Shown here piece by piece: positions 3,001-9,000 of a stretch of 64,000 nucleotides of DNA. Position 1 is the first letter of the stretch, and the number at the start of each line of letters is the position of its first letter. The stretch lies in assembly GCF_054482595.1 (NCBI RefSeq), contig NZ_CM137008.1; one strand, 5' to 3'. The position numbers are program-made.

Positions 3001-6000
3001 CCTGATGCTGCGGCACCAGACGAATCGCCGTTGCCGCTGACATAGACCAGAATCCGCCAATGGCCACACCAATCATCGCACGACCGACCATATACATCAG
3101 ATAACTGGTAGCCAGCGCAATAATAAGCCCCGATACGGCCATCAGAACCGTCATCCCCAGCAGCAGGAACTTACGATTCATCTTTCCAGCTAGCGTTGAA
3201 AGCGTCAGGCTGGTCAGAACCGCCAGCGCACCGGAGATAGCAATCCCCTGCCCTGCAAGCCCCTCCGTCACGCCTAAATCGCGGGTAATCGGCGTGAGCA
3301 GGCTGACGGGCATAAATTCAGAAGCAATCAGCACAAACACGCACAGGGTCATGGCAAAAATACCGCCCCAGTATGCGCGCTGATGATGAGGTGATAGTGT
3401 TTGGCTTAGTGTCGACATAGTGAAATTTCACAAAGATCAGGATAAAAGCCACCAGCCTATGGCCGGTGGCTTTGCATCAATTCAGGAGAGGTTTTATTTC
3501 AGTTTGGTCTGGAAAAATTGTTCGAACTTCGCGAAAGGTATTTTTCCGGCCACGTTATCGTACAGGTCCACGTGATTTGCCCCTGGTACCACCACCAACT
3601 CTTTGTCTTTACTGCCAACCGCCTTGTAAGCATCTTCAGCAAAATAGCGTGAATGCGCTTTCTCACCGGTCACAATCAGCGTCGGGATGGTGATTTCACT
3701 GGCGTATCTCAACAGCGGCATATTCATAAATGACAGCGGCATCGTTGCCGTCCACGCCCCGGTAGAGTTAACGGAACGTTCGTGGAAGCCGCGCGGCATG
3801 CGATAGTAGTCAAAGAACTCTTTCAGTACCGGATGAGGATTTGCCGGCAGCGTTTCTGGCAGAATGCGCTCGCCCGCACTGACCTTGCCGTTGCTGTCGA
3901 CATTAATATCATGACCACCGTGAGCAAACGTTCCGCTCTGCGCATCCTTCCAGCGCTGTTCATTCAGATATTGCAGAACAGCACGACGGTCGGCGGTAGA
4001 ATAACGGTCTTTGCCATCCCCCACACCATGACCCATCGCCCGGCTCATGTCATACATCACGCTGGTAGCTACCGCTTTAACGCGGGTATCCATCGCCACG
4101 TCGTTCAGCGCCATGCCGCCCCAGCCACAAATACCGAGCAGCCCGATACGGTTGCGGTCTACCTCTTTTTGCAGCCCTAAGAAATCCACCGCCGCGCTGA
4201 AATCTTCAGTGTTGATATCCGGTGAGGCGACGTTTCGCGGATAGCCGCCGCTTTCCCCGGTGTAAGAAGGATCGAACGCCAGGGTAACAAACCCTCGTTC
4301 CGCCAGCGTCTGCGCATACAGGCCGCTGGATTGCTCTTTCACCGCGCCAAATGGCCCACTGACCGCAATCGCCGCCAGCTTGCGATCGCCACGGTCTTTA
4401 GGCAGGTAAAGATCGCCCACTAAGGTGATGCCATATCGGTTCGGGAACGAGACTTTACGGTGATCGACTTTCTGGCTCTCGGCGAACGTTTTATCCCATT
4501 TATCTGTCATGGACACAGGGGCATTAGGATTGGTTGAATCAGCATAACTCATTGTCGTGACTCCACTTAATGATGCGAAAAGCAGCATGGTCGGCATCGC
4601 GGTTTTTAGCGTTCGGGTGAAGGCTTTCATAAAAATCCCCATAAAAAACAACAGAGAGATACAGGTTTCCGACGGACAACGCTGCGGTGCTTTACTTTGA
4701 TGGGGTCATTATAGTGAGCAGAATTAGTGCTGATTAGGGGGCGATTAATGCTAAGATTAATACCATATTGTTATAAATTAATGCGGAGATTGCCGGCATG
4801 AAGGGGGGATGTTTCAATGGCGAAAAGGGAGAACTACAACGAGCTGTACCTGTTTATGCAGGTGGTGCGGGAAGGCAGCTTTACCGCAGCGGCTCAGCGG
4901 CTGGGTCTTGCTCAGTCAGGAGTCAGCCGTTCTGTTCGCGAGCTTGAAGAAAGGCTGGGTGTCCAGCTGCTAGTGCGCACCACGCGTAAACTGTCGCTGA
5001 CACAAGCAGGCGAGCAGCTCTACCAGAAGACGGCATCTGGATTTGAAATGTTAGATCTTGGGCTTGCCACACTGGCGCACTATCGAGAGACGCCCTCCGG
5101 CACGGTGCGTATCAATGCCAGCCAGCACGCGATTGATAAATGCCTGCTGCCAAAGCTGGCGGTATTTAAACAGCGATATCCTGATATCCGGCTTGAACTG
5201 ATAAATGAGAGCCGGTTCGTCGATATCATCGAGGAAAGATTCGATGCAGGTGTCCGCCTGGGGCCTGAAGTCGGCCAGGGTATGGTCGCGGTACGCATCA
5301 CGCCCGATATGGAGATGGCAATTGTGGGGACTCCGGAACATTTTCGTCGCTATGGTTTTCCGCAAACTCCGGCGGATTTAAAGGCGCATCCCTGTATCGC
5401 CTATCAGTTTGCCGACGGCAGCGTATACCAGTGGGAACTCAATCAGGATGATAAAAAAATCACTCATCGCCCTGAAGGACAATGGGCCCTATCCGACAGC
5501 TATATGGAAGCAGAAGCCGCCCGGCTGGGCCTCGGATTGGCCTATGTTCCTGTTGAACTGGTCGCGGATGATTTAGAACACGGTAAGCTTATCAGGGTGT
5601 TGCAGCGTTACAGCCTGCGAATGGAGGGATTGTTTCTCTATTACCCTCATCGCAACGTCTCCCCCGCCCTGCGGATGGTCATTGATACATTGAAAATCTG
5701 AACGTTAATAACGACCGACTCTTCACTGTGCAAAATTGTGTCAGGTAATCCCTCTGCGTTCAATTCCAGGGTCTGCTTTGAGCGAGAAAGATCAGACTTA
5801 TCTGTACAAGGGGACTATCCAGCAATGGAGATCATCCAAAAGAAAAAACCACCTGGCTCCCCTCGACAACCTTAATCCGGGCATTTAGCCTCAATCAACA
5901 TTTTCATATCTGTCAGGTTACTTCATTATGAAAACCGATCAATATCGTTGTTTTTGTTGCAACAGTAGAATACGCGTATTTATCCCTCCATTTCTATTAA

Positions 6001-9000
6001 TAACGGCAATAAACTGTTCATTTCACTGATATTTAAAATATGCATCCTTTTCAAGCTGTTCAGCGGCATAAGAAAACGTATTAAATATGAATTCGACGAT
6101 TTAACCATTTCTGTCTGATTGGTAATCATCTGTGATTAATGCTGGTCTATTGATTACGCCAGCATTAACCGCTTAGGGATGTATTCTTCCTGTTGATATA
6201 CAGCCCTCGAAAAAGAGAGAAAATAAAACTGTGTCCAATATTACTCTACCACTCCAGACCGAAGCATCGGTAGAATTAGCAGAACGACTGGTACAATAGA
6301 TTGGGATAGCGTCATTTGTCAGGTATTCCATTGCCTGACAAATGACAATTTTGAGTCAATAGACGTGCTTCTTGATCATGTCTTAAAAATTATACCATGA
6401 GCCTTATGAAGCATCATTTTTACTGACTGGTGTTAATTTTGCTATCATATAAACTCTGTTCTTAAAAAACGCGCCCAGAATTTTATATGATTTCCCTTGT
6501 TTTTCTGCCTGTAAAGAAATTTCTTTTTCAGTGCTGTCAATGGTTGAACCGACGGCAGTAATCGTTTTGGCGACGCTACTGAATGATAATAAAGACAGTG
6601 TAACAACAACAATTAAAGAACAGATAGTATTCACGCTAATTCTCCTGACAATTGAGAGGATGAGTTTTATATACATAGGTATTAAACATGAGTCATATTT
6701 ACCCCAAGAGAAAATACTCCTTCTGTAATTAAACCTTCATCTCCTTCGGGGTGAGCAATACATAATACATCTTGCTATGAAAACACAGGGATATATAAAT
6801 CTTCCTTCTGACCTATTTAATAAAACGTGAATGTAAAAATTATTCTTCAGTTTGCAGATGCAGTGGGTCTGATGGTAATTTCGGTTGTATCAACGCTTTC
6901 GGGAGATTCAATAATATGCCTTACAGCACGGGCAATATCCGCGGGTTGAAGTGCAACAGAACGGTAGGCGTCCATTGCCTTCATGGTTTCCACATGGGTA
7001 ATGGTTGAAGCCAGTTCACTTTCGACAACGCCAGGATTTACGCAGGTCACACGGATTTTCGAGCTTTCTTGCCGTAAGCCATCAGAAATAGCCCGTACTG
7101 CAAATCAGGCAGCGTGAAATGGTCGTTGCCTCTCCCTCCTATCTCGCAGCCAACAGCACACCTGTTCATCCGCGTGAACTTGTGAATCATAAGTGTATCG
7201 GCTGGCGTCAATCCCCGGATGTTGCGCCTTATCGCTGGCCATTTGAAGAAAACAGGAGAGCTTTCGACCTTGCGATTGAACCGCAGATTACGACTAATGA
7301 TCTGCGTCTGATGTTGAGGCTGGCTCTTGCCGGCGGAGGAATAACAATTGCCACTCAGGAAACTTTCAGGCCATATATTGAAAGCGGTAGGCTTGTATCT
7401 CTGCTTGATGACTTTCTTCCACAATTTCCGGGCTTCTATCTGTATTTCCCACAGCGTCGCAATATTGCACCAAAGCTCCGCGCCCTGATTGACCACGTCA
7501 AGGAATGGCGGCAGCAATTGGCTTAAATGTCTGCACCTGCATTGCCTGATGTCAGAACAGTATTTTGATTAATTGCCAGGGTTACAATGGCATAAATACG
7601 GCACAGGAGGAAACGTGGTGTATTTGAATATGGGGTAACTACTTGATTTAAATGGTGCCGATAATAGGAGTCGAACCTACGACCTTCGCATTACGAATGC
7701 GCTGCTCTACCAACTGAGCTATATCGGCCCTGAAAGGACATGTTCACGAACGTGAATCACGGTGGACAAGGTTAAAACTAACCGGGCGATGCGTCAATGG
7801 CCTTGTGAATCAAACGGCTACTTTTGCATCACCCGGTTTTATTTACGCACGAATGGTGTAATCACCAATGCCGATCCACTTGTAAGTGGTCAGTGCTTCC
7901 AGCCCCATTGGGCCACGCGCGTGGAGTTTTTGTGTGCTTACCGCCACTTCCGCACCCAGTCCAAACTGGCCGCCGTCGGTAAAACGCGTAGAGGCGTTAA
8001 CGTAAACAGCGGACGAATCCACTTCGTTAACAAAACGCTGGGCGTTGCGCATATCGCGGGTCAGGATCGCATCGGAGTGTTGTGTGCCGTGTTCACGAAT
8101 ATGGGCGATGGCATCGTCAAGATCGCTGACGATTTTGACGTTCAAATCTAATGACAGAAACTCATCGTCATACTCTTCAGCTTTAACCGCCACCACCTTC
8201 GCAGGGCCTGCCTGCAACTGTGTCAGCGCAGCTGCATCTGCGTGTAATGTCACGCCGCTTTCCGCCATTTGTTTGCTTAATGCGGGCAGGAAGCTATCGG
8301 CGATGTTTTTATTCACCAGCAACGTTTCTACCGTATTACATGTGCTCGGACGCTGAGTTTTCGCGTTGACGATCACTTTTAATGCTTCAGCGATCTCTGC
8401 ACTTTCATCAACGTAAATATGGCATACGCCTATACCACCAGTGATCACCGGGATCGTCGACTGTTCACGGCACAGTTTATGCAAACCAGCGCCACCACGC
8501 GGGATCAGCATGTCGATGTATTTATCCATACGCAGCATTTCACTGACCAGCGCACGGTCAGGATTATCAATCGCCTGCACGGCACCCGCCGGTAAGCCAC
8601 AGGATTTCAGGGCGTCCTGAATCACCGCTACCGTTGCCGCGTTAGTGCGACAGGTTTCTTTGCCACCACGCAGGATCACCGCATTACCGGTTTTCAGGCA
8701 CAGCGAAGCGACATCAACCGTCACGTTCGGGCGCGCTTCATAAATCACGCCAATAACCCCCAGCGGTACGCGACGACGCTCAAGACGCAGGCCGCTGTCC
8801 AGTACGCCGCCATCGATTACCTGCCCCACCGGATCGGCGAGGTTACACACCTGGCGTACATCGTCGGCAATGCCTTTCAGCCGTGCGGGCGTCAGTGCCA
8901 GACGGTCAAGCATCGCTTCGCTAAGGCCATTGGCTCGCGCGTCAGCAACATCCTGGGCGTTAGCGTTGAGGATGATTTCGCTTTGTGCTTCCAGTTCATC

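Follow-up and report, generated by a model that had tools for sequence, protein, structure and literature searches.

Several described systems of Escherichia coli are close to the locus analyzed here. In K-12, ykgR-ykgM-ykgO carries the genes for the small membrane protein YkgR and for the paralogs L31B and L36B, and the tRNA gene thrW is, as stated in a note that was made on the present DNA before this analysis (the original prediction), the attachment site of CP4-6. Template-switch mutations associated with quasipalindromes are known reportedly from the work of Ripley in 1982 and of the Lovett laboratory. In E. coli, the correction of quasipalindromes by template switching is an established process (PMC7202029), and it has been proposed as the reason why perfect inverted repeats persist in Proteobacteria (PMC5941160). 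DUF1471 proteins (YdgH-BhsA-McbA, PF07338) are small periplasmic proteins of Enterobacterales, which are associated with stress, biofilm and virulence (PMC11705850). We here compare with these systems the interval 5702-7652 of a 64,000-nucleotide (nt) stretch of DNA (NCBI RefSeq GCF_054482595.1, contig NZ_CM137008.1), which adjoins an unoccupied thrW; the whole stretch of 64,000 nt is called the window.

The window comes from an E. coli with an unoccupied thrW site, and we conclude with high confidence that the interval is a native, slowly eroding chromosomal flank of this empty tRNA gene, for which no new mechanism is needed. It very probably holds the debris of pseudogenes and two hairpins of ordinary history, together with one small gene that is real, the more exotic readings being unsupported. 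The open reading frame (ORF) list and the tRNA scan give the gene order paoC/paoD, an MFS transporter, an alpha/beta hydrolase (3494-4651, minus strand), an intact LysR gene (LysR-1; 4817-5701, plus strand), the interval, thrW, proA, proB and phoE. Because the gene block lies beyond the inserted elements in other strains and is found also in cryptic-clade Escherichia, it is an old chromosomal flank. When we searched 5,426 complete E. coli genomes, the set on which all genome counts in this report are based, at least 80% of window 5600-7760 was held in one place in 392 of them, and this segment was 100% identical in E. coli XH990 and three further strains. The RefSeq features for the identical interval of XH990 are ykgR, SDR (short-chain dehydrogenase/reductase) and LysR pseudogenes and one hypothetical protein. 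The guanine-plus-cytosine (GC) content is 34-38% over 5850-6900 versus 50-57% in the flanks, in agreement with the AT-richness that the original prediction had pointed out for about 1.1 kb; its statement that this DNA has no long ORF needs qualifying, since the ORF at 6404-6676 holds a real gene of 231 nt. The coordinates in the original prediction were all confirmed, and its interpretation is supported in part. The features that we have assigned, with the basis of each assignment, are as follows.

5702-5931, no strand: spacer after the intact LysR-1, ending at the breakpoint where ykgR homology begins (genome search).
5928-6029, plus strand: 33-codon Cys-rich ORF, judged spurious (ORF list, alignments to the ykgR relic).
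5932-6000, plus strand: relic of a second ykgR copy, consisting of the last 22 codons, which read IVVFVATVEYAYLSLHFY, and the stop codon (K-12 homology; RefSeq 'ykgR, incomplete, missing N-terminus').
6050-6084, plus strand: relic of ykgO (ribosomal protein L36B), consisting of the last ~11 codons and the stop codon (alignment to the K-12 end, TTTAAGGCCGTTCAGGGTCGTAAGAAAAAACGTTGA).
6136-6168, plus strand: hairpin homologous to the one just after ykgO in K-12, a putative terminator relic (alignment, repeat scan, fold).
6311-6346, no strand: quasipalindrome, perfect in this lineage, with 13-base-pair (bp) DNA arms, a 15-pair RNA stem and a 6-nt loop (repeat scan, alignments, fold).
6404-6634, minus strand: small gene for a precursor of 76 amino acids (aa), with a signal-peptide-like N-terminus and then a beta-alpha-beta-beta domain of ~54 aa (start GTG 6634, AGGAG 6646-6642).
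6847-7104, minus strand: 3' fragment of an SDR oxidoreductase gene, pseudogene, 85 codons and the stop codon (only the C-terminal part of Pfam adh_short; RefSeq pseudogene).
7105/7106, no strand: junction of a 1,041-bp deletion (alignment to O145:H28).
7107-7526, plus strand: C-terminal substrate-binding fragment of a second LysR gene (LysR-2), pseudogene, counterpart of K-12 yagP (PF03466 positions 81-207; RefSeq; yagP/attR side of K-12).
7653-7728, minus strand: thrW, tRNA-Thr(CGT), unoccupied attachment site (ARAGORN and Rfam).

The clearest erosion event is found at the thrW-proximal end of the interval, where one 1,041-bp deletion took the 5' parts of the SDR gene and LysR-2 together with their common promoter region. 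O145:H28 strain RM9872 carries both genes intact and in divergent orientation (SDR of 240 aa, LysR of 299 aa), and its locus aligns with window 1-7105 and 7106-9000, with 1,041 additional bases between the two segments; in O157:H7, too, the SDR gene is intact (240 aa). Because the intact pair is divergent and just these 1,041 bp are missing, the fragments in the window are the 3' halves of a divergent pair, which was inactivated by this single event. The original prediction had expected a junction near 7050-7119, and the alignment places it exactly at 7105/7106, with no microhomology. The LysR C-terminal fragment that it had recognized at 7119-7526 is confirmed, the Pfam LysR_substrate match being confined to positions 81-207 (E 2.8e-22). 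The SDR fragment proposed at 6847-7050 is real too, with a frame open over 6847-7104 and an adh_short match that is C-terminal only, and merely its description as convergent has to be withdrawn, because the missing 5' ends abut. A probe of 100 nt over the junction was found whole in 24 genomes, and its halves were found apart, which is the intact state, in ~391.

The closest counterpart of this end in K-12 is yagP (b0282), a LysR fragment at the right end of CP4-6, which has the same LysR-2 C-terminal domain beside a thrW-derived attachment sequence; K-12 NC_000913.3 297.2-297.8 kb matches window 7188-7704, including the thrW-derived attR. The two genomes differ in the extent of the loss: K-12 is without all of window 2101-7187, from paoD to the middle of LysR-2, whereas only 1,041 bp have been lost in the window, which has kept the SDR 3' end, the DUF1471-like gene and the ykgR relic. 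The segment missing from K-12 covers the MFS transporter, the hydrolase, LysR-1, the ykgR relic, the small gene and the SDR gene, and as a consequence yagP abuts paoD in K-12.

At the other end of the interval, window 5932-6048 and 6050-6197 align with the K-12 ykgR-ykgM-ykgO module in the same order and orientation. The former shows 90.6% DNA identity to K-12 ykgR from about codon 13 through the 3' flank, the relic reading IVVFVATVEYAYLSLHFY and stop in the ykgR frame versus IVVFVAIVEYAYLFLHFY and stop in K-12; within the latter, 6090-6197 shows 76.6% BLAST identity to the sequence downstream of K-12 ykgO, including its hairpin. Unlike K-12, the window copy is without the ykgR 5' end and promoter, and ykgM and most of ykgO have been deleted at a junction (~6049/6050) that is the same in every copy examined. 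What is left of an old second ykgR-ykgM-ykgO module is only the 3' two-thirds of ykgR, followed by the ~11 final codons of ykgO and by the hairpin that comes next. Transmembrane and C-terminal homology to YkgR (PF28062) is retained here, and no complete 33-codon ykgR ORF with a start and a Shine-Dalgarno sequence is present in the window, the homology beginning at 5932 with no in-frame start and with a TGA just upstream. The real ykgR-ykgM-ykgO locus is situated ~20 kb away from this dead second copy, and we found no mention of a second copy in the literature on ykgR. The spacer 5702-5931 occurs as one copy per genome in 917 genomes, a search for paralogs of 5702-5935 elsewhere in E. coli genomes gave none, and in the cryptic-clade loci the canonical ykgR promoter and 5' end are found in place of the spacer.

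Since 6090-6197 matches the sequence after ykgO, the repeat at 6136-6168 is the homolog of the hairpin after ykgO. As the original prediction had stated, it is a perfect inverted repeat (10-nt arms at 6136-6145 and 6159-6168, 100% matched), and its RNA folds at -21.6 kcal/mol (z-score, z, of -4.4), with 0 of 200 shuffled sequences being as good. The hairpin is conserved in all copies examined, one stem pair differs from K-12 on both sides (GCTGG/CCAGC here versus GTTGG/CCAAC), and the T tail has been lost, the following bases being CCGCTT here versus TTTTCC in K-12 (CCGCUU versus UUUUCC in RNA). On the basis of this homology, the hairpin is presumed to be the former terminator of ykgMO. In K-12 the hairpin after ykgO (L007 1790-1830; NC_000913.3 ~312.29-312.33 kb) falls within the 3' end annotated for ykgL, an uncharacterized ORF of 75 aa on the opposite strand, which casts doubt on whether ykgL is a real gene.

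The second hairpin, at 6311-6346, was likewise correctly described as a perfect inverted repeat, with 13-nt arms (6311-6323 and 6334-6346) that are 100% matched; its RNA folds at -24.8 kcal/mol (z -5.7), and again 0 of 200 shuffles were as good. Its derived block, TGACA at 6336-6340, and TGTCA at 6317-6321 are exact reverse complements of each other. The right arm reads TGCC-TGACA-AATGAC in the window, in O157:H7 and in strain 6EVA, and TGCC-ATAAC/ATAAG/ATAAT/ATCAT-AATGA(C/T) in the cryptic-clade loci, strain AF40 and O145-type strains, these four being the alleles of the TGACA block found elsewhere, and the opposite arm is the same TGTCA or one base off (TGTCG) in all loci examined. An internal loop of 5x5 nt is present in 8 of the 9 non-identical loci, and most of the five cryptic-clade contigs are imperfect. 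The O145 allele, the only one folded, gave -11 kcal/mol (z -0.07), which is no better than shuffled sequence. Among the 405 genomes holding region 6270-6390, 346 are at least 99% identical to the window, including all listed O157:H7 and O55:H7 strains, and ~52-59 genomes are just 80-95% identical; most of the difference falls in the right arm. The O157:H7 strains Sakai and EDL933 are identical to the window over this region. The structure at 6311-6346 is not conserved among orthologous loci, as the imperfect alleles elsewhere make clear, and judging from these alignments we regard the perfect form as a lineage-specific mutational product and not as a conserved RNA element.

This change resembles the described template-switch quasipalindromes in that a clustered multi-base change has perfected an imperfect inverted repeat, the new bases being the exact reverse complement of the opposite arm and the complementarity being increased. 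It differs in being a natural polymorphism recognized by strain comparison, with a direction that is taken from the alleles at other loci. In an ancestor common to this lineage and O157:H7, one 5-nt side of the internal loop would have been replaced by the reverse complement of the arm facing it, a template switch during replication being the most likely cause; the alignments show directly the sequence pattern and the polarity given by most other loci, and both point to this mechanism. The hairpin offers a clean natural example of quasipalindrome correction.

It is possible, although rather unlikely, that 6311-6346 is a working intrinsic terminator, perhaps bidirectional, where plus-strand read-through coming from LysR-1 and the ykgR relic converges with the DUF1471-like gene on the minus strand, or that it is the 3' end of a small RNA. 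The hairpin is situated between convergent genes, 57 nt past the stop codon of the minus-strand gene, and is the sole terminator-like site in our scan, with 15 pairs, the plus-strand tail AATTTTGAGT and the strong fold mentioned above, but one such site is no more than shuffled sequences give (mean 1.4). In addition, the U tract on the plus strand is short (AAUUUUGA, 4 U) and there is none on the minus strand, where GCUAUCCC comes next, and the alleles of AF40 and the cryptic clades are similarly imperfect to that of O145, whose weak fold was given above. A covariance scan of 5500-7800 with Rfam 15 (E<=1) returned only the tRNA, apart from a sub-threshold antisense match on the tRNA itself. 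The small RNA suggested in the original prediction has accordingly found no support, because Rfam is empty and the more stable of the two hairpins is restricted to particular lineages, its ancestral form being unstable. A terminator role is compatible with the template-switch origin that we prefer, since template switching can create hairpins (PMC8794818), and in this strain the hairpin may end plus-strand read-through with the tail AATTTTGA. A stronger version, in which the perfect form is a naturally captured template switch that made a new functional terminator, by which read-through on the plus strand is kept from the convergent DUF1471-like gene in the lineage shared with O157:H7, seems to us improbable; if it were true, strains with imperfect alleles would serve as built-in controls.

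The original prediction also raised an old integration scar, and the view that a mobile element formerly present at thrW left the AT-rich block behind has to be judged very unlikely. The GC content of the block is low (34-38%) and thrW is a known integration hotspot, where nearby strains hold integrase fragments, AbiE/restriction islands or CP4-6. However, a search with the 32-nt 3' end of thrW, allowing up to 3 mismatches, found a single occurrence in the 64-kb window and no attL/attR pair, so the attachment site is empty, with no prophage and no duplicated attachment sequence; the prediction was right in finding no prophage beside thrW, and the direct repeat of the thrW 3' end that it had proposed to look for is absent from the 64 kb. 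There are no remnants of integrases, transposases or other mobility genes among the ORFs or RefSeq features of 5702-7652, such remnants having been found in other strains between LysR-2 and thrW. The elements insert between thrW and LysR-2 and the block stays on their far side, the block is syntenic in cryptic-clade Escherichia, and the SDR/LysR junction is a simple internal deletion. Breakpoints elsewhere include one deletion of 6290-7296, an island with AbiE and type I restriction genes that starts after 6164, and an integrase fragment adjoining thrW in AF40. In place of a scar, the locus is a decay-prone flank of an integration hotspot.

The 33-codon ORF at 5928-6029 exists as originally predicted, and the toxin or leader peptide proposed for it does not hold up: the ORF is a frame artefact, which begins with an ATG (5928) in the non-homologous junction and continues through the ykgR relic in the +1 frame, and this shift by one base accounts for its unusual Cys-rich look. 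No Shine-Dalgarno sequence is found upstream of the ATG (caggttacttcatt), and no plus-strand promoter-like site in 5702-5930, and the promoter scan gave no more sites than shuffled sequence does. That the ORF is open here and, by our own reading of the alignment, in the ~10% divergent AF40, and that it has the same length as YkgR, hardly makes a real Cys-rich small protein credible, because it overlaps the relic in another frame, lacks these start and promoter signals, shows no sign of constraint between the window and AF40 (4 replacements versus 3 silent changes by hand count) and is called by no annotation pipeline.

The sole functional element of the interval would be the minus-strand gene for a putatively secreted 76-aa protein of DUF1471 type, kept by purifying selection. 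Its start codon, GTG at 6634, lies 7 nt behind AGGAG and is ATG in O145, GF4-3 and the cryptic clades. Compared with the cryptic-clade orthologs, the ratio of nonsynonymous to synonymous substitution rates (dN/dS) is 0.15-0.18 at dS 0.36-0.41, which indicates that the gene has been maintained, and from this substitution pattern we take it to be live and under purifying selection. Homologs of the 90-aa ORF (90% clustering) are all from Escherichia or Shigella; many gene callers give the 76-aa form, and frameshifts are present in several strains. The RefSeq model of 92 aa (WP_024227134.1 and relatives; 6404-6682, minus strand) starts at a non-canonical ATA at 6680-6682, the conserved start being 48 nt downstream at 6634.

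Concerning the family of this protein, a profile of the Escherichia family retrieved 59 representatives of ~69-73 aa at E<=1e-3 with full-length matches, and when 38 sequences (37 retrieved relatives and the window protein) were scanned, 35 matched PF07338, with a best E of 9.6e-12. Homology to recognized DUF1471 members and a compact beta-alpha-beta-beta fold are both found, in line with the DUF1471-like gene guessed at 6404-6676 in the original prediction, though the window protein itself scores below threshold. The N-terminus is hydrophobic, ends with SFSSVA/KT and is conserved across the family. The gene product is thus assigned, by profile homology, as a short, divergent member of the DUF1471 (YdgH/BhsA/McbA-like) family that is predicted to be secreted. 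It differs from the described members in being 76 aa versus ~85-91 aa for YahO or BhsA, in falling below the Pfam gathering score when taken alone, and in having close homologs only in Escherichia and Shigella. The 76-aa form had no match in Pfam at E<=0.01, hhalign detected no similarity between the family and K-12 YahO alone, and a PDB profile search with the small protein gave no match at E<=10. We also considered an ortholog of K-12 YkgL, the convergent neighbor of ykgO, and BLASTP gave no alignment. The corrected start and the short-DUF1471 assignment apply to a hypothetical protein in O157:H7 and ~400 other complete genomes. An inverted repeat of 17 nt with 88% complementarity (6407-6423/6833-6849) brackets the gene, with one arm at the stop codon of the gene itself and the other at that of the SDR fragment; chance in AT-rich DNA is the probable explanation.

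The relic can be compared with loci in which ykgR is intact. Contigs of divergent Escherichia (cryptic clades) have an intact 33-aa YkgR here, beside the small gene, SDR and LysR-2, one protein among them bearing the name Escherichia sp. KTE114; contigs L008 and L010 and also GF4-3 have the complete YkgR of 33 aa at the position of the relic. Among genomes labeled 'E. coli', ykgR is intact here in GF4-3, 6EVA and wlxctx60. The order in GF4-3 and 6EVA is betA, fdeC, ykgR, small gene, SDR, LysR-2, island and thrW, and the ykgMO/ecp/pao block is absent between them. This short arrangement, with fdeC, an intact ykgR, the DUF1471-like gene, SDR, LysR-2 and thrW in one continuous series, is present in only 3 of the complete 'E. 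coli' genomes and in cryptic-clade contigs L008-L012; it could be ancestral, or could have arisen by recombination between two ykgR repeats. The relic of the second ykgR-ykgMO module, which had not been recorded, may help to reconstruct how the ~20-kb ykgMO-ecp-pao block came between fdeC and thrW.

Several points weigh against our interpretation of the interval as an eroding native flank and of its hairpin as a template-switch product. The direction of the hairpin change was read from a handful of loci, and the perfect arm is present in 6EVA as well, which is divergent and has the short arrangement; the lineages may have recombined, or the 6311-6346 alleles may have another root. The PF07338 match of the small gene product itself is 14.1 bits (E 0.05) against a cut-off of 27, and the expression of the small gene and the silence of the relics are deduced from sequence. 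For the two ykgR copies, duplication followed by deletions and a Campbell-type insertion of the ~20-kb ykgMO-ecp-pao block are both possibilities. With these points considered, we retain the eroding flank as the explanation of the interval. What is new is confined to details, namely the relic of ykgO, the allele attributed to template switching and, for the small gene, its start and family; none of these by-products alters current understanding. For genome scans, the locus illustrates that the decay of pseudogenes and templated mutation can fully account for a tiny ORF of odd composition and for perfect palindromes in AT-rich DNA at a tRNA hotspot.

Two further observations concern other parts of the window. 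Compared with XH990, which is identical at thrW, the ~39-kb Flag-2 cluster for lateral flagella is absent at ~18994-19005, with a deletion junction between the lafU and flhA remnants that we take to be the same as in K-12; the window strain is for this reason distinct from XH990. A tRNA-Asp(GTC) gene is located at 62212-62288, ~39 kb beyond dinJ/yafQ (window ~23000); this distance exceeds that of K-12 by roughly 26 kb and suggests an island beside aspV.

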